Below are positions 669 through 26,213 of a DNA stretch of 32,000 nt, one piece after another. Both the position numbers and the translations under genes were made by a program. Below the pieces are notes generated by a model. The model worked only from the letters and a program-made list of their open reading frames with translations. It did not search any database and was not told where the DNA came from. The DNA is from Candidatus Saccharimonadota bacterium (GTDB lineage: Archaea > Nanohalarchaeota > Nanosalinia > Nanosalinales > Nanosalinaceae): positions 990,001-1,022,000 of the forward strand of contig NZ_CP107255.1 in assembly GCF_029232205.1 (NCBI RefSeq). Direction: 5' to 3'. Numbering within the stretch: the first letter of the stretch is position 1; the number at the start of each line of letters is the position of its first letter.

Positions 669-1052
669 CTACTTGAGTGGGATGTGTTTGGACGAACGTG
701 TTGCACCAAGTCCTGGTGCGCTGTGTTCGACTTCTTTTCGGGTTCTTGCGAATTCTCCGAGGTAGTGGCCGAGCATTTCTGGCGCGATTTCTACTTCGAT
801 GAATCTTTGTCCGTTGTAGACTTCGATGGTTTTTCCGACCATCTGTGGTACTACGATCATTCCTCTTCTGTGGGTTTTGGCTCTGTCTTTTTCCTCGAGT
901 GTTTCGAGGATTTTTTCTTCCTCTTCTCTTAGGCCTCTTTGAATCTTTCTGCGGCCTCTTGAGTTGAGGAGGTCGGCGAACTCTTCTAGTTCCATGTCTT
1001 TGAGTTCGTCGAGTGTTTTTCCTCTGAATGTGAATTCGTCTTGTTCTGCCAT
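669..1052 (-). CDS. rps19: 30S ribosomal protein uS19
   Basis: 127-aa ORF with [25 protein letters not shown] and [12 protein letters not shown], the classic uS19 core. Operon position is between rpl2 and rpl22. Confidence 0.95.
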
Positions 1053-1063
1053 GTTTGGTCACC

Positions 1064-1765
1064 TTACTGCTTCTTCTTTCCGCTGCGGCTTGCAGCGATG
1101 TTTCCAACTTTACGCCCTGGTGATGCGTGTCTGGAAACTGTCTTTGCCTTTCCTGGTTTTGCTGATCCACCGAATGGGTGGTCTACTGCGTTCATTGCTA
1201 CGCCGGATACCTTTGGATATGCTTTGCCTCTGGCTTTCATTGCCTTGGACTTGTTTCCGGCCTTTACGAATGGTTTCTCCTTTCTTCCGCCGCCTGCTAC
1301 TTTTCCTACTGTTGCACGGCATTGTGTATTCAGTTTCTTGAATTCTCCACTTGGAAGTTTTACTCTTACTCCGTCTTTTTCGTGTGTTACTACGAATGCG
1401 TATGTTCCTGAACTTCTGGCGATGTGGCCGCCGTCGTTTGGCTGTAGTTCTAGGTTGTGGATTGGTACTCCTTCTGGGAGTTCTCCTAGTGGTAGTGTGT
1501 TTCCTGGTTTTACTTCTGCGGATACTCCTAGTTCTATTTCGTCTCCTACTGCCAGGCCTTCTGGTGCTAGAATGTTTCTTTGTTCTCCGTCTTCGTATTC
1601 TACTACTGCGACTGGAGATGTTCTGCCTGGGTCGTGGATTAGGTCTACTACTGTTCCTTTTGTTTCTGCTCTTTTGGTTTCTACGTCTCCTTTGCTTTTG
1701 TGTGAGTTGGATTGGTAGTTTGGAGATCCTTTTCCTCTTCTTTGTTGTCTTAGTGGGCTTCCCAT
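1064..1765 (-). CDS. rpl2: 50S ribosomal protein uL2
   Basis: 233-aa ORF with IHDPGRTSPVA, GNTLPLGELPEGVPIHNLE and AMNAVDHPFGGS, which are conserved uL2 motifs. Confidence 0.97.
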   Translation of the reverse strand: MGSPLRQQRRGKGSPNYQSNSHKSKGDVETKRAETKGTVVDLIHDPGRTSPVAVVEYEDGEQRNILAPEGLAVGDEIELGVSAEVKPGNTLPLGELPEGVPIHNLELQPNDGGHIARSSGTYAFVVTHEKDGVRVKLPSGEFKKLNTQCRATVGKVAGGGRKEKPFVKAGNKSKAMKARGKAYPKVSGVAMNAVDHPFGGSAKPGKAKTVSRHASPGRKVGNIAASRSGKKKQ

Positions 1766-1766
1766 C

Positions 1767-2048
1767 TTACATCATACCTAGTTCGGTTGCGACGTCCATT
1801 GCGGAGTCGGTTTCTGAGAGTTTTACGTAGGCCTTTTTCTCGGCGTTTGGCGTGATGTTTGTGTTTACGTTTGTGACTGTAACATCGAACAGTGTTTCTA
1901 CTGCGTCTTCTACCTGGTTCTTGTTTGCATCGAGGTTGACCATTAGGACTAGTTTGTTTTCTTCGTCGATCATGTCCATTGCTTGTTCGGTCATGTGTGG
2001 GTTCTCGATGATTTTCCAGGCTTTGTCGTCTTCCATTTTGTGATTCAC
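1767..2048 (-). CDS. rpl23: 50S ribosomal protein uL23
   Basis: 93-aa ORF abutting rpl2 (stop 1767-1769, rpl2 start 1765). Size, position and the KAYVKL-type C-terminus fit uL23. Confidence 0.88.
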   Translation of the reverse strand: MNHKMEDDKAWKIIENPHMTEQAMDMIDEENKLVLMVNLDANKNQVEDAVETLFDVTVTNVNTNITPNAEKKAYVKLSETDSAMDVATELGMM

Positions 2049-2051
2049 CTT

Positions 2052-2810
2052 TTATTGGAAAAGTTCCTCTTCTTCAAGTTTTTCCAGTGCTTTTTCGCTC
2101 CATACTGTTAGCCGTCCTGGCTCTGCTCCTGGAGCTAGTTTTTCTGCGTTGAGCTGGTCTACTAGTGATACTTCTACGCCTGCTAGGTTGCTTCCTGCGT
2201 TTTTGATTCCTTCGTCTTCGGCGACTACTACTAGTGGACCTGATTTTCTGACGTATTTTCGGCCTCTGTTCTTTCCTTTTCCTGCTCTTACTTTCTTCTG
2301 TTTGACTCTTTCTAGTTCTTCTTCTAGGCCTAGGTCTTCGAGTTTTTCTTTGAGGTCCTGTGTCTTTTCGATTTCTTCAAGACCGTCTTCTACTAGAGGG
2401 ACTTCTCCGTCGTATGCGTGTTTCTCTGTGACAAGGCTTTGGTCTGCTGTTGCTGCGATTGCACTCCTGATTGCTTTTCTTCTTTCCTTGTCGTTGATTT
2501 CTTCTTCGAAGTCTTTCTCTGCTTTTGGAGGGTGAGCTCTGCGTCCGCCTCTTGTGTTCGGTGCTTCTGCTCCTTCTCCGTAGATCTGCATTCCTCTGCG
2601 GACTGTGATCTTACGTGGTACTCGGGACATTCCCTTTCCTTTCTGGCCTCTGTAAGCGTTCTGGCGTTTCTTCCAGTAGGTAACGTGCTTGTTACCTGCT
2701 TCTGGGTCTGCGCCGTAGGCCTGTCTTTTCTTGGATTTGATTGAGAGAGTTGCTCTCTTGACGAGGTCGTCTCTCACTCTTTCCGTAAACTGAATTGGTA
2801 GATCTGTCAT
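2052..2810 (-). CDS. rpl4: 50S ribosomal protein uL4
   Basis: 252-aa ORF with AHPPKAEKD, NDKERRKAIRSAIAATA, RAGKGKNRGRKY and APGAEPGRLTVWSE, all typical of archaeal L4. Confidence 0.92.
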   Translation of the reverse strand: MTDLPIQFTERVRDDLVKRATLSIKSKKRQAYGADPEAGNKHVTYWKKRQNAYRGQKGKGMSRVPRKITVRRGMQIYGEGAEAPNTRGGRRAHPPKAEKDFEEEINDKERRKAIRSAIAATADQSLVTEKHAYDGEVPLVEDGLEEIEKTQDLKEKLEDLGLEEELERVKQKKVRAGKGKNRGRKYVRKSGPLVVVAEDEGIKNAGSNLAGVEVSLVDQLNAEKLAPGAEPGRLTVWSEKALEKLEEEELFQ

Positions 2811-2823
2811 TGTTTTTCACCCT

Positions 2824-3795
2824 CTATTGGTCGATGTAAGTTATTTCTGGTGTTCCTGGTTTTCCGTCTTCTCTCATTGCTGTTCGCAGCCTGATCAGTC
2901 TTTCTGATGGGCCTGGTACTGAGCCTTTGATTATGATGTAGTTGGACTGGACTTCTCCGTATCCGTTGAAGCCTCCGTCTCTCTGTACGTCTTCCGGGTC
3001 TTCTCCGTGTGCGAGGATTCTCTTGTTTACTTCTGTTCTGTTGTTGAATCCTTGCTGGCCTGGCAGTGGTACTTTCCATGAAAGTGTGTCAGGGTGCCAT
3101 GGGCCTACGTTTCCGGCTTTTCTTCGTTTCTTCTGTGTTTTGTGGCCGAGTTTCTTGATTCCGTATCTTTGTACTGGGCCTTCCATTCCTTTTCCTTTGG
3201 TTACTGCTACTACGTCTGAGTATTCTCCTTCTTCGAATACCTGGTCGAATTCGATCTGTTTTCCGATCATTTCTTCTGCGTATTCAAGCTGATCTTCTAC
3301 GTCGCCTCCGATTCCTACTTCGAAGTTCTCTGCTGTCTTCTTGCTGAGTCCGGCCTGTCCTGGCTGTGTGTGGACTAGCAGTCTGACGTCGGTTATTTTG
3401 TCGGAGTTTTCTTTTGCTTTCTCCAGGTTTTCCATGTTTCCTTCTTTTGGTACGTCTACTGCTCTCTGCAGTTCTGGTGCTGGAGATTCTGTCCAGGCCT
3501 CTGTAAATACGTTTTTGCCTGTGTTGACATCTTGTGTGTAGAAGCGGGCTCCATATACTCTGAGCGGTGGTGCTTCTAGTATTGTTACTGCTTCTGCTAC
3601 TTCCTGTCCCTGTGTTGCTCCTTCTGTGTCGTCGATCATCATGACTCTGGACATTCCTACTTTGTAGCCTGCGAAGCCTAGTGGTTTTAGTTCGTCTGTT
3701 TCTTCCCAGTTGTCTATGTCTGGGTATATTCTTTCTGCTCGGACCTTTGGCTTGAATCCCAGGGATCCGCTTCTTGATCTATTTTTCTTTGGCAT
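2824..3795 (-). CDS. rpl3: 50S ribosomal protein uL3
   Basis: 323-aa ORF with GSLGFKPKVRA, FAGYKVGMS and TKGKGMEGPVQRYG, the archaeal L3 signature. First gene of the operon. Confidence 0.95.
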   Translation of the reverse strand: MPKKNRSRSGSLGFKPKVRAERIYPDIDNWEETDELKPLGFAGYKVGMSRVMMIDDTEGATQGQEVAEAVTILEAPPLRVYGARFYTQDVNTGKNVFTEAWTESPAPELQRAVDVPKEGNMENLEKAKENSDKITDVRLLVHTQPGQAGLSKKTAENFEVGIGGDVEDQLEYAEEMIGKQIEFDQVFEEGEYSDVVAVTKGKGMEGPVQRYGIKKLGHKTQKKRRKAGNVGPWHPDTLSWKVPLPGQQGFNNRTEVNKRILAHGEDPEDVQRDGGFNGYGEVQSNYIIIKGSVPGPSERLIRLRTAMREDGKPGTPEITYIDQ

Positions 3796-4375: not shown

Positions 4376-5794
4376 TTATCCTTTGATGTTGACTACAGGC
4401 CTCATTTTGGCTACCTTGTTGCCGATTCCGAGGGCGTCGCTGACCTTGATTACTTCGTCGATGTCCTTGTAGACTCCTGGGGCCTCCTCTGCGATTGTTG
4501 AACCCGAGGCTGCTTTGACAAATATCTGGTCTCTTTTGAGTTCTTTCTGTACGTCTTCTCCCCAGTAATCCTGCTTGGCCTGTGTTCGTGACATCAGCCT
4601 TCCTGCTCCGTGTGCTGTTGAGCCAAAGCTTATTTCCAGTGATTCCTGTCCTCCGGAAAGAATGTAGCTTGCTGTTCCCATGCTCCCCGGGATTAGTACG
4701 GGTTGGCCTACGTCTCTGTAAACTTCTGGGACTTCAGGCCTTCCTGCTGGCATTGCTCTTGTTGCTCCTTTTCTGTGGACGAGTAGTTCTTTGTCCTCGC
4801 CGTCTACGTTGTGTGTTTCTTCTTTGGCGATGTTGTGGCATACGTCATAGAGAAGTTCTGTCTCCACTTCTTCGTAGATGGTACTGAGGCATTCTCTGAC
4901 TCCCTGTGTGATGGCCTGACGGTTGGCCCATGCGTAGTTTGCTGCTGCGTACATGGCCTCTTTGTAGTCCTGTGCGAGTTCGTCCTGCATCGGCGCGTAG
5001 ATCAGTTCCTTGTCCGGTATTTCTTCCACGATTTCAGGATAGTTTTTCTCGAACTTTCTAAGATAATTAGTACAGGTCTGGTGGCCGAGGCCTCTGCTTC
5101 CGGAGTGGATCATGACTACCACCTGGTCTTCTTCCAGTCCATATGCCTCTGCCTTCTGGTCGTTGTAGATTTCTCCTACTCTCTGGATTTCGAGAAAATG
5201 GTTTCCTGACCCCAGGGAGCCTACCTGGTTGAGGCCTCTTTTTTTGGCGTCTTCAGGTATTTTTTCGGGGTTGCCTGGTAGTCGGCCTTCTTCTTCGCAT
5301 CTTTTGATGTCGCTTTCCTTGGCGTGGCCGTTTTCCAGCATCCATTCCGCTCCTTTTTCAAGTATTTCTTCCAGATCTTCTTCATCGGTGTTGATGTATC
5401 CTCCTTTTCCAAGGCCGCAAGGTATTTTGTTGTATAGAATGTTTGCAAGCTGCTGCTCTTGCCCTCTAATATCTTCGTACTTAAGATCTGTCTTGAGTAC
5501 TCTGATGCCGCAGTTGATGTCGTAGCCGATTCCTCCTGGGCTTATTACGCCGTTTTCTTTGTTTACTGCTGCCACGCCTCCGATTGGGAATCCGTATCCC
5601 TGGTGGCCGTCTGGCATGACGATTGAGTATTTTTCGAGGCCTGGTAGTGTTGCTACGTTTTTGATCTGTTTGAGTGTGTCGTCCTGTCTGATTTCTTTAA
5701 GAAGATCTTCATTGGCGTAGACTCTGGCCGGTTTTTTCATCTGGCCTTCCTGTGGTATTTCGTAGATGTTTTCGGATATTTTGTTGAGTTCCAT
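4376..5794 (-). CDS. rtcB: RNA-splicing ligase RtcB
   Basis: Contains MPDGHQGYGFPIGG, GYDINCG, GSGNHF, HSGSRGLGHQ and STAHGAGR, the canonical RtcB metal and GMP-His motifs. I chose the start at ATG 5794 (MELNKISENIYEIP). The tracked start at 5857 would overlap the archease gene. Confidence 0.95.
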   Translation of the reverse strand: MELNKISENIYEIPQEGQMKKPARVYANEDLLKEIRQDDTLKQIKNVATLPGLEKYSIVMPDGHQGYGFPIGGVAAVNKENGVISPGGIGYDINCGIRVLKTDLKYEDIRGQEQQLANILYNKIPCGLGKGGYINTDEEDLEEILEKGAEWMLENGHAKESDIKRCEEEGRLPGNPEKIPEDAKKRGLNQVGSLGSGNHFLEIQRVGEIYNDQKAEAYGLEEDQVVVMIHSGSRGLGHQTCTNYLRKFEKNYPEIVEEIPDKELIYAPMQDELAQDYKEAMYAAANYAWANRQAITQGVRECLSTIYEEVETELLYDVCHNIAKEETHNVDGEDKELLVHRKGATRAMPAGRPEVPEVYRDVGQPVLIPGSMGTASYILSGGQESLEISFGSTAHGAGRLMSRTQAKQDYWGEDVQKELKRDQIFVKAASGSTIAEEAPGVYKDIDEVIKVSDALGIGNKVAKMRPVVNIKG

Positions 5795-5826
5795 ATGTAG
5801 AAAGTTTCTGTAAACTCTTTTTACAG

Positions 5827-6237
5827 TTATATGTCGAGGACTACCTGAAGTCTCCATTTTCCTTCTTCGAATGTGACTTCCATTTCGCTGTATGTGGGGC
5901 CTTTGACGTCCATTACGCTCATTGAGTTTTCTATGTTGTCGGCCCAGATCTTTGCTGTCAGTCTGTATCCGTCTTCAAGATCTTCTATTTCGAGGTCTTC
6001 TGCGTATGAGATTACGACGTTGTCGACGTCCTGTAGGAAGATGAGTTTATCCATGAAGTCGAATAGTAGTGCTTCCTGACTTTCAGATTCTACCTCTATA
6101 CTGTAGTATGTCTGGCCGTTGAAGCCTCCGACTATTTCAGAGAAAGCCTTTACTGCTTCTGAGAATGCTTCTTCCAGCGAGTCTCCTGAGGCCTGGAATT
6201 TTTCATCGGCAGTGTGTTCAAGTATTTCGTAGCTCAT
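5827..6237 (-). CDS. Archease (RtcB activator)
   Basis: 136-aa ORF starting MSYEILEHTADEKF. The EHTAD motif and size are typical of archease. It lies immediately upstream of rtcB, a well-known pairing. Confidence 0.88.
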   Translation of the reverse strand: MSYEILEHTADEKFQASGDSLEEAFSEAVKAFSEIVGGFNGQTYYSIEVESESQEALLFDFMDKLIFLQDVDNVVISYAEDLEIEDLEDGYRLTAKIWADNIENSMSVMDVKGPTYSEMEVTFEEGKWRLQVVLDI

Positions 6238-9869: not shown

Positions 9870-10871
9870 TTATTCGTGGTTGATTTCCACTTCGTCAAGT
9901 ACATCTAGGGCCTGTGTTGATACGAATGCGAGGTCTTGCCAGTCTTTTGTCATTCTTGGGCAGGCGCAGTTGACGTAGATGTCGATTCCGAATCCTTTGT
10001 AGTCTGATTCGAAGATTCTGTCTTCGACAAATACGTATACGTCTTTGCCGTGTTTCTCAAGTTTTTCTTTGGCGATTTTGACGGCCTGCATGTAGTTCTG
10101 GCCTTTCTTTGAGGAAGTGACGATACCCCATTTCTTCTTGTCTTTGTACTTCATGACTCTGGCGTATTCTGCTCTTTTCTCGTCGTCAAGAGAGTTAGGT
10201 GGTTCAACCCAGATGTGCTCTTCGTATGGATCTACTACGTAGACCTTTTTTCCGGTCTCCGATACCTGTGATGGGTGGAAGTGGCCGGATCCGAGGAAGA
10301 CGAAAGCGTCTACCTTGTGTGATATGTTGTGGGCCGCTCCTGCATCGCATCCGAGTACCTGGCCGACTTCTGTGGTTCTGAGGCCTGTCTTGCCTTCTAC
10401 TACTTCATATCCTTTTTCTTCAAGGAATTCTCGGGCCTCTTCTGCTCTGTCCATGTACTGTGTTACTCCTACGAGGCCGATTTTTTCGTCTTCGTCTATT
10501 TCTTCGTAGTGGTTTTCCAGAATACTCATTATGTCTCTGTCTTCTCTGTACGGAAGATAGTAGACGTTGAGGTCGTCCATGTCGGCTTTTTCTGGATGCA
10601 GGAATCTTGTGTGGCCTACGTGAATTAGCGCGTCGGCCCCCATTCTTTCTGCTTTTTCGTCTGCGATTCCGCATGCTCCGAAGGTTGAGGCCCCGATTAT
10701 TACGGTTTCGTATCCTCTTTCTTCGAGTTGTTGTGCGTAGTCAATTATCTGTGGTTTGATGCCGTCAGGGCCCTGTAGACCGATTTTTTCGTGGTCTTTG
10801 CCCTCTATTTCTTCGAGAATTTCTTCTATTGATTCGTAGTTCCACTGTGCTCGCTGGTTTTCTTCCGTCAT
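9870..10871 (-). CDS. dph2: Diphthamide synthesis enzyme Dph2 (2-(3-amino-3-carboxypropyl)histidine synthase)
   Basis: 333 aa with three spaced Cys contexts (FGACGIAD, VLGCDAGA, NCACPR), as in the archaeal radical-SAM Dph2 4Fe-4S ligands. LQGPDGIKP is at the N-terminus. Confidence 0.85.
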   Translation of the reverse strand: MTEENQRAQWNYESIEEILEEIEGKDHEKIGLQGPDGIKPQIIDYAQQLEERGYETVIIGASTFGACGIADEKAERMGADALIHVGHTRFLHPEKADMDDLNVYYLPYREDRDIMSILENHYEEIDEDEKIGLVGVTQYMDRAEEAREFLEEKGYEVVEGKTGLRTTEVGQVLGCDAGAAHNISHKVDAFVFLGSGHFHPSQVSETGKKVYVVDPYEEHIWVEPPNSLDDEKRAEYARVMKYKDKKKWGIVTSSKKGQNYMQAVKIAKEKLEKHGKDVYVFVEDRIFESDYKGFGIDIYVNCACPRMTKDWQDLAFVSTQALDVLDEVEINHE

Positions 10872-19216: not shown

Positions 19217-19384
19217 TTATACGTCTCTTGCTTTGACAGTTTTACGTCCGTTTTCGTCTGCTCTTTCTACAGCTCTTGCGATTAGGTCCTTTACCTCTTC
19301 GTCTAGAGCGTCGTAGAAGTCAGATCCTACGTTGACGCCATCTGCAGCGTCACGTACTCCGGACTTCTTTAGTACGTCTACCAC
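19217..19384 (-). CDS. Small histone-fold-like protein (DUF1931-like), 55 aa, GTG start; absent from the ORF track
   Basis: My translation is VVDVLKKSGVRDAADGVNVGSDFYDALDEEVKDLIARAVERADENGRKTVKARDV. The GRKTV(K)xxD ending and xSxDAxxxLxEE pattern match histone-fold half-domains. GGTGAT Shine-Dalgarno lies 5 nt before the GTG. A TATAAAAA box (minus strand) is at 19418-19425. Confidence 0.5.
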   Translation of the reverse strand: MVDVLKKSGVRDAADGVNVGSDFYDALDEEVKDLIARAVERADENGRKTVKARDV

Positions 19385-23919: not shown

Positions 23920-24216
23920 ATGCTTCAAACACTGGTAGCTATAGGCCATGAAATAGTTAGGTCAAGCTGGATAGCAGCTTCAGTTCTTGTAAAATACTAT
24001 CTAGCTGCTACAGTACTTTATCTTCTGTACAGGAAAGATCTCAATATTGAGAGTTTTCAGGAGAACCTTGTAGATAATTCACGAACAGTTATTTTCAGTC
24101 TTCTAGGCCTTGGTATTGTCCTTGCTGTTTCAGGCCTTCAGATTTCGCCTGTTTTTGGTGATGTCAGCCAGTTGATCGCGCTGGGTTATCTGGCGTATCT
24201 TTTCTGGGTTTACTGA
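23920..24216 (+). CDS. Small membrane protein (98 aa)
   Basis: Three predicted hydrophobic helices. The start is 1 nt after the PRC-barrel stop. Confidence 0.5.
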   Translation: MLQTLVAIGHEIVRSSWIAASVLVKYYLAATVLYLLYRKDLNIESFQENLVDNSRTVIFSLLGLGIVLAVSGLQISPVFGDVSQLIALGYLAYLFWVY

Positions 24217-24536
24217 AGTTTGGACTTTACTTTGTTGTGCCAGGAGTCGAGGGCCTGTTTTGCGATGTTTTTGAGTTCTTCGAAGGGTAGTGTGGTGTAT
24301 ACGTAGTATACTGTTTTGTCGGTTTTTCCTTCTCTCATGATGATATCTTTGTTTAACATGTCTTGTAGGGCTCTTTGAACTGTTGACCTGTTTCTGTCGA
24401 CTTCTGCGGCCAGTTCCTGTACTGTTAGTTGTTTATTCTTTAGTTCGTCGAATATCTGCTTCTGTAGCGAGTTAAGGTCGAATATGTCGAAGATTATATC
24501 TTCGTCCTCCTTCCCCTCCAAATCAAAGAACTCCAT
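24210..24536 (-). CDS. Winged-helix transcriptional regulator (TrmB/ArsR-like)
   Basis: LQKQIFDELKNKQLTVQELAAEVDRNRSTVQRALQDMLNKDIIMRE is an HTH followed by a wing (KTVYYVY). Confidence 0.68.
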   Translation of the reverse strand: MEFFDLEGKEDEDIIFDIFDLNSLQKQIFDELKNKQLTVQELAAEVDRNRSTVQRALQDMLNKDIIMREGKTDKTVYYVYTTLPFEELKNIAKQALDSWHNKVKSKLQ

Positions 24537-24573
24537 ATAGAGAAATTTCTGTTAGGCTAGTAATAAAAATATA

Positions 24574-24786
24574 TCAGCCGCCGGCGATTACATCGAATAC
24601 TCTGATCGTATCTCCGTCTTCAAGTTCGTGTCTGCTTGAGATTATAGTCCCGTTCTTCGATACGAGAACTTCTTCAACAGGTATGTCCTCATCTTTCAGG
24701 AATTGCTGAACAGAGATATCTCTATCGACTTCTACCTGTCTCTCGACTTCCTCTTCCAGATCATCCCTTACGAGTGTGATCCTGAT
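24574..24786 (-). CDS. Ubiquitin-like beta-grasp protein (SAMP2/ThiS-like) ending in Gly-Gly; no canonical start codon
   Basis: My translation is IRITLVRDDLEEEVERQVEVDRDISVQQFLKDEDIPVEEVLVSKNGTIISSRHELEDGDTIRVFDVIAGG followed by a stop. The frame is open only from 24792. It contains no ATG, GTG or TTG. GGTGAT Shine-Dalgarno at 24797-24792 lies 5 nt before ATC 24786. The stated 5' boundary is provisional. Confidence 0.5.
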   Translation of the reverse strand: MRITLVRDDLEEEVERQVEVDRDISVQQFLKDEDIPVEEVLVSKNGTIISSRHELEDGDTIRVFDVIAGG

Positions 24787-25088
24787 CCTGCATCACCTTT
24801 CTCATCTATTCTTCTCTCGTATTTTTCCATTGCCCTCTCGAAGGCCTTCTCCGCATCTATATCCAGCGAGTCTGCTACTGCCAGGATTGAGAAAAGCACG
24901 TCACCTATCTCATCCTCTTTAACATCCAGTTTTTCTCGGGCCCCTCCGTATTCAGCGGTTTTTACCGCGTCCTTCACTATTTCTCCGGCCTCTGATATGA
25001 AATCCATTATTCTGAACTCTGGTGGGGCCTGCATGTCGTTTTCTTCAAGAAATTCTGATACTCTGTTTTGTTGTTGGCGGAGAGACAT
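24768..25088 (-). CDS. MazG-like all-alpha nucleoside triphosphate pyrophosphohydrolase
   Basis: 106 aa with EAGEIVKD ... EDEIGDVLFSILAVADSLDIDAEKAFERAMEKYERR, the EExxE/D metal motif pattern of small MazG proteins. Confidence 0.72.
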   Translation of the reverse strand: MSLRQQQNRVSEFLEENDMQAPPEFRIMDFISEAGEIVKDAVKTAEYGGAREKLDVKEDEIGDVLFSILAVADSLDIDAEKAFERAMEKYERRIDEKGDAGSGSHS

Positions 25089-25091
25089 CCT

Positions 25092-25991
25092 TTATTCGAC
25101 CTCTATATGTCCTTTTCTTGCGGCGTGAAAGATATATTCCTGGGCATAACCAGAGTACTCGCCGAAGTGTTCTCTCATGTTTTCAGATAGTTGATCGTAT
25201 TTATCAGCGTAGAGATCCTCAAAATGACTTTTCAAGGCCTTATCTGCCCACGTATCGATTGGGTAGGCCTCGTAGAATCCTAGAGAGAAGAGAAGTACGC
25301 AGTCCGCTACTTTGTCTCCTACGCCGTACAGTTTCTTCATTTCTTCGCGGGCCTCGACGTACTCCATTTCTCCGACTTCTTCAGCTTCAAAGCTTTCTTC
25401 CTCCAGAATTTTGAGAGTTTCTACTATGTATTTTGCTCTGTAACCTGTTCCCAGTTCTCTGAGTTCTTCTTCAGAGGCCTGTGAAAGTTCTTCCCTAGTA
25501 GGGAATCTTAGTAGTTCTTTTCCATTGATTTCTCTTGTTTCGCCGTATTTTCTGGCGATTTCGTTGTGCATTTTCTTGATTCGTGGTATTCTCATCTGTG
25601 GCGAAAGCAGATAGGAGATAAGACATGGGAAGAATTCGTCCTGTACAATTCTGAGGCCCCAGAGATATTCTTTTGCCTCTGAAAGTTTCTGATTTTCCGG
25701 AAATGTCTGGAAGATGTCTTCCAGATCGTGATGTATTCCGAGGGCCTCTTCTACTTCTTCTCTTGGCAGTTCTGTTTCTACAATTATTTCGTTGTCTTTT
25801 TCCTCTACTATTATCGGTTTCTTGTTTCTGAATGTGTAGAACCGGGAATTCTTTTCGGATTCAGAAGATTCTTGGTCTTCGGATGCTTCTTCGTAGAGTT
25901 TGCCGTTTACTCGATGCCAGCAGAATGTCTGGCCACAGGTCATTGTCTGTTCCAGGTCGAAGTCTTCCGCCGGTATCGAGAATTTTTGCAT
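25092..25991 (-). CDS. ogg: 8-oxoguanine DNA glycosylase/AP lyase (OGG, HhH-GPD family)
   Basis: OGG_N-like TMTCGQTFCW. HhH-GPD LYGVGDKVADCVLLF carries the catalytic Lys context, followed by YPIDTW (Asp). Confidence 0.85.
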   Translation of the reverse strand: MQKFSIPAEDFDLEQTMTCGQTFCWHRVNGKLYEEASEDQESSESEKNSRFYTFRNKKPIIVEEKDNEIIVETELPREEVEEALGIHHDLEDIFQTFPENQKLSEAKEYLWGLRIVQDEFFPCLISYLLSPQMRIPRIKKMHNEIARKYGETREINGKELLRFPTREELSQASEEELRELGTGYRAKYIVETLKILEEESFEAEEVGEMEYVEAREEMKKLYGVGDKVADCVLLFSLGFYEAYPIDTWADKALKSHFEDLYADKYDQLSENMREHFGEYSGYAQEYIFHAARKGHIEVE

Positions 25992-26018: not shown

Positions 26019-26213
26019 TTAGTCCGAGTCCTTCTTCGAGTACTTGAAGAATCCTGTACCTTTTTCCTCGTCGTAGTCGTCGCTCTTGTCTTTGGTCTTC
26101 TTTGCATCTCTTTTCAGGTAGCTGCGGCCGCATTGGTGGCATTTTACTCTTTTCTGGGCCTTGCTTCGCTGTTTGTAGCCGCAGTCCGGGCACTGGTAGA
26201 AGACCTTTGACAT
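26019..26213 (-). CDS. Small zinc-ribbon protein with Lys-rich/acidic tail
   Basis: CPDCG ... CHQCG are two CxxC knuckles in 64 aa. The gene lies between the DUF123 and ogg genes. Confidence 0.6.
   Translation of the reverse strand: MSKVFYQCPDCGYKQRSKAQKRVKCHQCGRSYLKRDAKKTKDKSDDYDEEKGTGFFKYSKKDSD

Follow-up and report, generated by a model that had tools for sequence, protein, structure and literature searches.

A conserved AUC codon as the probable start of a ubiquitin-like protein gene that overlaps a MazG-like gene in Nanohaloarchaeota

Introduction

Conserved non-canonical start codons are rare, and the best-understood of them, that of bacterial infC, is regulatory. The infC gene encodes the initiation factor IF3 and has a near-cognate AUH start codon that is conserved across a whole lineage rather than being a sporadic mutation, and the codon functions as the sensor of IF3 autoregulation (PMC5499595). 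Here, we describe an archaeal gene that probably has a start codon of the same kind, also conserved lineage-wide. The gene encodes a ubiquitin-like protein (Ubl) and lies on the minus strand of a nanohaloarchaeal DNA stretch of 32,000 nucleotides (contig NZ_CP107255.1, positions 990,001 to 1,022,000), which was analyzed as a whole and is referred to as the window. In contrast to infC, the product of the Ubl gene is not an initiation factor, the initiation machinery is that of archaea (aIF1/aIF2), and the inferred AUC start codon follows a strong Shine-Dalgarno (SD) sequence within the upstream gene, which overlaps the Ubl gene.

The protein resembles the archaeal SAMP2 proteins (Haloferax volcanii HVO_0202; Pyrococcus furiosus SAMP2/PF1061, 5lda_B and 1rws) and MTH1743 (1ryj), with which it shares a length of approximately 66-77 residues, a beta-grasp fold, and a Gly-Gly end. 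The bacterial proteins ThiS and TtuB share its Pfam ThiS family and its fold. The genomic setting is similar to that of Ubls involved in tRNA thiolation or protein conjugation, in that the genome reportedly contains a MoeB/UbaA-type E1 and is without a thiamine or molybdopterin pathway. However, the Ubl gene has a conserved AUC start and belongs to an operon with genes for 8-oxoguanine DNA glycosylase (OGG) and a MazG-like protein, neither of which has been reported for SAMP2.

The gene arrangement resembles that of the termination-reinitiation pairs of haloarchaea and bacteria, which are likewise co-directional and overlapping, with an SD sequence in the upstream gene before the downstream start; where haloarchaeal genes overlap in pairs, SD motifs contribute to termination-reinitiation (PMC6728339). 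The overlap in such pairs is typically 4 nt (ATGA) or 1 nt and the starts are canonical, whereas the Ubl gene overlaps its neighbor by 10-19 nt and begins with AUC. Ribosome profiling of H. volcanii assigned approximately 30% of putative alternative initiation sites to near-cognate codons, but these were discarded as potential false positives (PMC7261190). In the literature searched, on nanohaloarchaeal Ubl, SAMP, and E1 proteins and on archaeal AUC starts, the feature is not described, and no archaeal gene with a phylum-wide conserved near-cognate start was found. Judged from sequence comparison, the broader finding is that the AUC start is probably conserved across the phylum, with a strong SD sequence that is part of an overlapping gene.

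The ubiquitin-like gene lacks a canonical start codon

The Ubl gene (24574..24786, minus strand, in window coordinates) consists of 70 codons and a TGA stop, and encodes a ThiS/SAMP2-family beta-grasp protein with the C-terminus DVIAGG (translation IRITLVRDDLEEEVERQVEVDRDISVQQFLKDEDIPVEEVLVSKNGTIISSRHELEDGDTIRVFDVIAGG followed by a stop; IRITLV...DVIAGG). On the minus strand, its frame reads TGA (24795-24793), TGC, AGG, ATC (24786-24784), AGG, ATC, ACA, CTC, GTA, and continues to GCC GGC GGC TGA (24576-24574). The frame is thus closed by an in-frame TGA (24793..24795, minus strand) two codons 5' of the ATC. In-frame ATG, GTG, and TTG codons were sought across the whole open reading frame (ORF) in the window, and none was found. 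The ATC (24784..24786, minus strand) is the inferred near-cognate start codon; it is conserved in orthologues and aligns with the ATG or GTG of the others.

The SD sequence AAAGGTGAT (24792..24800, minus strand) precedes the ATC. The spacer between its GGTGAT (24797-24792) and the ATC is 5 nt long, and 6 nt separate the GGTGA core from the ATC. The SD sequence is encoded by the codons for Lys-Gly-Asp of the gene for a MazG-like nucleoside triphosphate pyrophosphohydrolase (25088..24768, minus strand; 106 residues; Pfam PF03819, 35.8 bits). The TAA stop of the MazG gene (24770-24768) is located within the Ubl gene, and the overlap of the two genes is 19 nt. The last seven MazG codons hold the ATC and the first four Ubl codons.

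An earlier note on this DNA described the lack of a canonical start, the Gly-Gly end, the overlap with the end of the MazG gene, and the GGTGAT 5 nt before the ATC. All of these can be read directly in the sequence, and the coordinates hold. The note also pointed to an ATG (24791..24793, minus strand) that is indeed one nucleotide out of frame. This ATG opens the frame MQDQDHTRKG, which then ends at a stop; it is outside the mechanism proposed below and missing in most relatives. The tandem CAGGAT-CAGGAT repeat mentioned in the note is present and corresponds to codons 1-3 (ATC AGG ATC) with the preceding AGG. It is not the scar of an indel, because it is common to the whole clade (the window, L001, L013, L017, L020, L041, and L059). 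The organism is a nanohaloarchaeon of the DPANN archaea, Ca. Nanohalovita haloferacivicina BNXNv, and not a haloarchaeon.

The ATC codon is conserved in related species

A scan of GTDB species representatives with C-terminal motifs, unbiased as to the start, identified 29 loci, and a metagenome scan 36 more. Together with the earlier loci, they amount to 58 distinct Ubl sequences, all from Nanohaloarchaeota. The genome of SVXNc (Ca. Nanohalococcus occultus, CP104395.1) was looked up separately and is outside the 58. In 36 of the 58, and in SVXNc, ATC is found where the other sequences have their ATG or GTG. MazG is located upstream in 32 of these ATC loci and missing from four. The ATC set includes SG9 (CP012986.1), M3_22 (CP046106.1), NHA25, and contig NAR1_11. 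In M3_22, an independent complete genome, the junction gagaaaggtgatgcaggATCaggatcaca is identical to that of the window.

The GGTGA-N6-ATC geometry is fixed in the 18 ATC genome loci that were tabulated (17 distinct sequences), in all of which the TGA within the SD sequence closes the Ubl frame two codons 5' of the ATC. The NGG codon between the TGA and the ATC varies (AGG, GGG, CGG, and TGG) and is therefore not coding in the Ubl frame. The frame is closed by TGA at the same distance in the tabulated MazG-linked junctions; L068 and L050 have TAA or TAG within one codon, and in L064 the frame is open for 25 codons. The SVXNc junction (AAAGGGGATCCTGG-ATC; L076:1483-1503) has a weaker SD, GGGGAT, and no canonical start, and its in-frame TGA is positioned six codons upstream instead of two. 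Transcriptome data exist for SVXNc. The first canonical in-frame codon is scattered between residues 3 and 63 and is absent in the window.

Three explanations for the missing start codon had been put forward, and the first of these, near-cognate initiation at AUC, agrees with the recurrence of the ATC and of the SD geometry in 36 distinct orthologues and in SVXNc. The retention of the AUC start in dozens of related species marks it as functional rather than as an error of sequencing. Another explanation was a 1-nt indel in the assembly that parts the ATG at 24793-24791 from the Ubl frame, so that the true gene would encode MRIRITLV.... The distance of one nucleotide between the frames and the short repeat nearby are as expected for such an error; its probability is nevertheless negligible. 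The same arrangement is present in the independent complete genomes M3_22, SG9, and SVXNc, in M3_22 with an identical junction, and the 36 distinct ATC sequences come from many assemblies. Most relatives read GGTGATCC and thus have no out-of-frame ATG: it occurs only in the minority of loci with a MazG Ala codon (GCN) at this place, the others having Pro (CCN). Furthermore, the ATG abuts the SD sequence with no spacer, and the ATC aligns with the first residue of orthologues. The protein is predicted to begin M-RITLV..., in line with MEITLV and MKVTLV in orthologues, rather than MRIRITLV.

Recoding, which includes the remaining explanation, could take the form of a +1 shift after the out-of-frame ATG or of a MazG-Ubl fusion, if ribosomes slipped by -1 on the final MazG codons. 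In favor are the position of the Ubl frame, -1 with respect to MazG, the linker-like appearance of the MazG tail GDAGSGS, and the ability of internal SD sequences to stimulate frameshifting in bacteria (prfB, dnaX). However, the stretch from the in-frame TGA to the ATC (GAT [GC]CN GGA TCN) contains no slippery site of the X XXY YYZ type. The sole candidate slip, from GGA to NGG, needs N to be G, whereas N varies among A, C, G, and T. The ATG required for the +1 event is missing from most relatives, and L068, an ATC locus without MazG, has nothing to which the Ubl could be fused. Recoding is thus very improbable.

In one clade (L008:2501-2749 and L010:2501-2764), the Ubl gene is in the +1 frame of MazG, not -1, and the protein has an N-terminal extension of 8-12 residues. 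The GTG of these genes is located 7 nt after GGTGAT, and an ATG is in frame too. Their MRKVMQ... start is homologous to the out-of-frame ATGAGAAAGGTGATGCAG of the window.

Fold and conservation of the ubiquitin-like protein

The protein matches Pfam ThiS (PF02597) over residues 12-70 with 35.3 bits, compared with a cut-off of 22.5. The 69 homologues all have a length of approximately 70 residues, and every one with a source name is from Nanohaloarchaea. The sequence DVIAGG followed by a stop, which ends the window protein, is invariant in 22 aligned homologues. Seventeen alignment columns are invariant, including R7, D8, L10, E39-V42, and D65-G70.

A profile of 22 homologues, used as the query in a search of the PDB, matched MTH1743 (1ryj, E-value 6e-8), P. 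furiosus SAMP2 (5lda_B, 1e-6), PF1061, ThiS, and TtuB; the E-values for the likeness to P. furiosus SAMP2 and MTH1743 span 6e-8 to 1.6e-6. The H. volcanii SAMP2 structures 4hrs and 2l32 matched weakly in the same search (E-values of 0.18-0.24), and the relation to this protein is distant. Matches to Pfam SAMP2 (PF21965) are limited to weak or faint precomputed ones in relatives. The AlphaFold2 model has a beta-grasp fold and a predicted local distance difference test (pLDDT) score of 88.5. It contains beta-strands at residues 2-8, 13-19, 40-44, 47-49, and 60-65 and a helix at residues 26-32; the block of beta-strand 1 (residues 2-8) has a pLDDT of 92. The best Foldseek match is 1ryj (MTH1743); TtuB (5gha and 5ztb, TM-scores of 0.72-0.76), ThiS (1zud and 1f0z), SUMO, ubiquitin, and SAMP1 are also matched. 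The ThiS/SAMP2-like ubiquitin fold named in the earlier note is thus borne out by the Pfam ThiS score above the cut-off, the beta-grasp model, and the agreeing Foldseek matches.

ThiS proper (NCBIfam TIGR01683) scores 27.3 bits, under the equivalog cut-off of 37.45, and the neighboring genes encode OGG, MazG, and a winged helix-turn-helix (wHTH) regulator, with no thiamine genes nearby. The MoaD profiles are below their cut-offs (TIGR01687, 20.4 vs 49.5; NF008347, 15.9 vs 94), and SAMP1 is below its NCBIfam equivalog cut-off.

The ratio of non-synonymous to synonymous substitutions (dN/dS) between Ubl genes of ATC-start orthologues is 0.04-0.10, with synonymous sites near saturation (dS between the window and M3_22 is already approximately 1.1). 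The gene is exactly 70 codons long in 57 of the 58 sequences, the exception being L014 with 69 codons. The frame, the conservation of which had been proposed as a test, is kept across the 58 orthologous loci compared. These values indicate that the Ubl gene is under purifying selection.

The ORF could alternatively be a decaying, untranslated relic, or an internal start could give a truncated protein. The lack of a canonical start fits both, and several database entries of 61-66 residues begin at residue 5-6 or later. However, a relic would not be expected to have such a dN/dS ratio, nor a length that differs only in L014. Internal canonical start codons are not conserved in position and do not exist in the window, for which reason an internal start was rejected. 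Truncation at residue 5-6 would remove beta-strand 1. We regard both alternatives as highly improbable.

Synonymous sites of the MazG gene at the junction

The 32 MazG-linked junctions are composed of the codons GGT (32/32), GAT (29/32), [CG]CN, GGA (31/32), and TCN (32/32), and the third position of the junction GGA codon is A in all 32. Of the Gly codons elsewhere in the same MazG genes, 30% are GGT and 39% GGA. The adjacent Pro or Ala codon ends in A in 11, C in 6, G in 10, and T in 5 junctions. The codon counts therefore indicate that the synonymous sites under the SD sequence and under the A of the AUC are frozen, whereas the neighboring site is randomized. In L008 and L010, where the Ubl gene has another frame and start, the same Gly-Ser pair is encoded by GGC AGT. 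As far as the compared sequences can tell, the coding needs of MazG do not fully account for the conservation of the ATC, the SD sequence, and the distance between them.

The mean energy of the SD duplex, calculated with the assumed usual archaeal 16S 3' tail, is -16.5 kcal/mol in ATC loci (n = 36) and -10.1 kcal/mol in loci with canonical starts (n = 20), a difference with a Mann-Whitney p of 4e-8 without phylogenetic correction. The tail was assumed because the window, in which Rfam and tRNA scans detected only tRNA-Asp and tRNA-Ser, has no rRNA. Only 12 of 36 window genes have an SD of at least four nucleotides, against a background of 22%. GGTGA-N6-start also occurs before the ATG gene at 1052 and before the GTG ORF at 19384, at which the earlier note had rightly recognized the same SD geometry. 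The latter ORF (19217-19384, minus strand) has 55 codons, and its GTG is located 6 nt after GGTGA (GGTGATTTCAC-GTG).

Two further candidate elements at the junction were rejected. A conserved RNA hairpin is not indicated in the window (z = -0.28), and only the SG9 clade (L017) reaches z = -2.6. In this clade (L017:2477-2506 in SG9; also L020, L041, and L059), the SD GUGAUCC can pair with GGAUCAC, in a hairpin of -14.4 kcal/mol that would hide the SD and the AUC. The GGAUCAC corresponds to Ubl codons 2-4 and is identical to the 16S 3' tail; the hairpin is clade-specific and weak in the window. The palindrome GATCCNGGATC is not a functional DNA site: it arises because the SD sequence is followed by GG and ATC, and it is not intact in the window, M3_22, L013, or L015.

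Loci without MazG and the history of the start codon

Four lineages without MazG have retained the ATC (L068, L064, L050, and L071). In L068, the TAG stop of OGG is followed by AGGTGGTAAACC-ATC, with the OGG stop 12 nt 5' of the ATC and an in-frame TAA one codon upstream. The junction of L064 is AAGGTGGTCTTC-ATC. The other two loci contain relic mini-ORFs, one of 12 codons ending in a stop in L050 (MKFSKQGGLRSK; L050:1467-1510) and one of 10 codons, MKFKGDLGSK and a stop, in L071 (L071:1342-1378). Both mini-ORFs keep a start codon and an SD sequence, and their stop is at +7 from the ATC, the place of the MazG stop in most species. The two look homologous in sequence and may have been retained as upstream ORFs that couple translation. 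In another locus (L029:2437-2500), MazG is apparently degraded to a 19-codon ORF ending in ...EEKGDAGNE, and the ATG of the Ubl gene is located four codons 5' of the usual position.

The ATG of MazG itself is found 0-21 nt, mostly 2-8 nt, past the OGG stop (TAA AGG ATG in the window). In loci without MazG, the Ubl gene has its ATG or GTG either 1-8 nt away from the OGG stop or overlapping it, preceded by a GAGGT that OGG encodes, as in L002 (TAA G ATG GAG ATC ACG). The simplest history suggested by these junctions would be repeated deletion of the MazG body, which fused the MazG start codon to Ubl codon 2. In a rough neighbor-joining tree, ATC with MazG extends across the whole family, and the ATG and GTG variants are nested within it many times. 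The combination of ATC and MazG looks ancestral in this tree, which is built from a short alignment.

It is possible to regard the AUC start as passive: the Gly-Ser codons of MazG (GGA TCN) would forbid ATG, GTG, and TTG and leave AUC as the best codon that MazG allows, and ribosomes would initiate de novo at the SD sequence, uncoupled and without regulation. A canonical start in the Ubl frame would require a TGN codon in MazG, and MazG retains the Ser after G-[DE]-[PA]-G as a residue even in L008 and L010, in which its codon is AGT. Loss of MazG is almost always accompanied by a start at ATG or GTG, and the SD sequence is very strong. However, neither the sequence nor the length of the MazG tail is fixed beyond this Ser (K, R, G, N, or GSHS before the stop), and a single C-to-G change would give an ATGA stop/start overlap, yet none of the 32 junctions has it at that position. 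ATC is retained in the four lineages that are free of the MazG constraint. Where MazG is missing, the ATG occupies the place of the MazG ATG, which fits fusion by deletion and not a selected change from ATC to ATG. A passive start is therefore considered unlikely, although it is the most probable of the rival explanations.

Proposed mechanism of initiation

The initiator tRNA (Met-tRNAi) would insert Met at the AUC, so that the protein would begin M-RITLV.... In Escherichia coli, AUC initiates with Met at 1-2% of the level of AUG (10.1101/063800). The unusually strong SD sequence would offset the weakness of the AUC codon. The ribosomes that initiate would chiefly be those arriving from MazG, whose translation they end 7-16 nt beyond the AUC: the MazG stop is found at +7 to +16 from the ATC across loci, and the co-directional overlap is 19 nt in the window and 10 nt in most relatives. 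Termination-reinitiation, or initiation dependent on upstream translation, would tie the output of Ubl to the translation of the OGG-MazG operon. The layout of the junctions suggests that Ubl initiation is probably coupled to upstream translation. Taken as a whole, we consider it likely that the ORF is functional and that its AUC start is ancestral and kept by selection, with coupling and an E1-based function included. More tentatively, and with less than even probability, the AUC might be a coupling-only start that is too weak for free 30S initiation, so that the Ubl would be made exclusively by ribosomes coming directly from MazG or from a relic mini-ORF retained to this end, or it might sense fidelity, with the Ubl made only under relaxed aIF1 stringency.

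Several points weigh against a selected and coupled AUC start. The comparison of SD energies depends on the assumed 16S tail and disregards phylogeny, and the SD of the window itself, GGTGATGC, has -12.4 kcal/mol and ranks among the weakest of the ATC loci. Part of the conservation of the ATC could be forced by the need for Gly-Ser in MazG, given that the TGN codon required for a canonical start would encode Cys, Trp, or a stop. To our knowledge, AUC initiates poorly in every system in which it has been assayed, and we know of no account of near-cognate initiation in DPANN archaea. Orthologues with an ATG start are also at most 8 nt from the upstream stop, and the comparative data do not discriminate for or against coupling. 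The E1 of the genome, BNXNv_0396, is assigned by the annotation in the published description alone (PMC10266531).

If the AUC is a coupling-only or fidelity-sensing start, the supply of a modifier or sulfur carrier would be tied to the translation of an operon for the repair of oxidized nucleotides, and no regulatory near-cognate start of such deep conservation would have been described in Archaea before; it would be a counterpart of the AUU/AUC of infC. The gene provides a natural test case, because AUC initiation is combined with an SD strength that differs between species and because co-cultures of such organisms (BNXNv and SVXNc) are now possible.

Possible function and E1 context

The statement in the earlier note that the window contains no E1-like gene is correct, as no ThiF/MoeB domain was detected among the 22 window ORFs scanned. 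These included every called ORF of at least 190 residues, and JAMM and NcsA-type domains were not found among them either. The chromosome of Ca. Nanohalovita haloferacivicina BNXNv has 1,046,959 bp and a GC content of 45%, compared with 45.5% in the window; the genome is reported to encode the MoeB homologue BNXNv_0396, and cofactor synthesis is described as "virtually absent" (PMC10266531). The supplements of this paper have no text entries for ThiS, MoeB, or MazG.

The Ubl would be activated at its Gly-Gly end by the orphan MoeB/UbaA-type E1 of the genome and would serve as a sulfur carrier for tRNA thiolation, as a protein modifier, or both. Such a role is suggested because the thiamine and molybdopterin pathways are lacking. 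By analogy, a function like that of Urm1, SAMP2, or TtuB, in tRNA thiolation and/or protein conjugation, is most likely. The presence of a MoeB-type E1 and a single small Ubl in a DPANN genome of approximately 1 Mb points to a minimal Urm1/SAMP2-like system beside OGG and MazG.

Annotation of the gene in databases

In GenBank, the ATC is already annotated as the start of the gene in the records that underlie P0001 (BNXNv), P0004 (M3_22), and P0041 (SVXNc). Other database entries are inconsistent (P0013, P0022, P0028, P0031, P0036, P0044, and P0058), with lengths of 61-66 or 82-87 residues, because gene callers need a canonical start. The shortened entries begin at an internal TTG, GTG, or ATG (in P0028, at the TTG of codon 5), and P0044 and P0058 are extended. 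The Ubl family is thus mis-annotated, or missed by callers limited to ATG, GTG, and TTG, which can be corrected.

Neighboring genes and other features of the window

The OGG gene (25092..25991, minus strand; Pfam OGG_N and HhH-GPD) is positioned 5' of MazG. The synteny of the run OGG-MazG-Ubl is conserved (L001-L010 compared). A gene for a TrmB-like winged-helix regulator (24210..24536, minus strand; Pfam TrmB, 36 bits) is located 3' of the Ubl gene and kept in nearly all loci; it is probably leaderless. The T-rich sequence TATATTTTTATTA (24561..24573, minus strand) directly follows the Ubl stop, with the ATG of the wHTH gene (24536) approximately 29 nt further on, and TTTTTATT is found again after the Ubl stop in relatives. 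From its composition and position, TATATTTTTATTA is probably both the oligo-T terminator of the OGG-MazG-Ubl operon and the TATA box of the leaderless wHTH mRNA.

A probable zinc-ribbon protein of 64 residues, in which a CxxC pair occurs twice (CPDC...CHQC), is encoded between DUF123 and OGG (26019-26213, minus strand). A gene for 61-64 residues is present at the same place in L001, L008, L009, and L010 and was not called in L002-L007. The window further contains genes (669-3795, 4376-5857, and 9870-10871, all minus strand) for ribosomal proteins L3-L4-L2, RtcB, diphthamide synthase, two NTP-transferase/hexapeptide proteins, PGM/PMM, beta-carbonic anhydrase, and thymidine kinase, which are not evidently linked to the Ubl.

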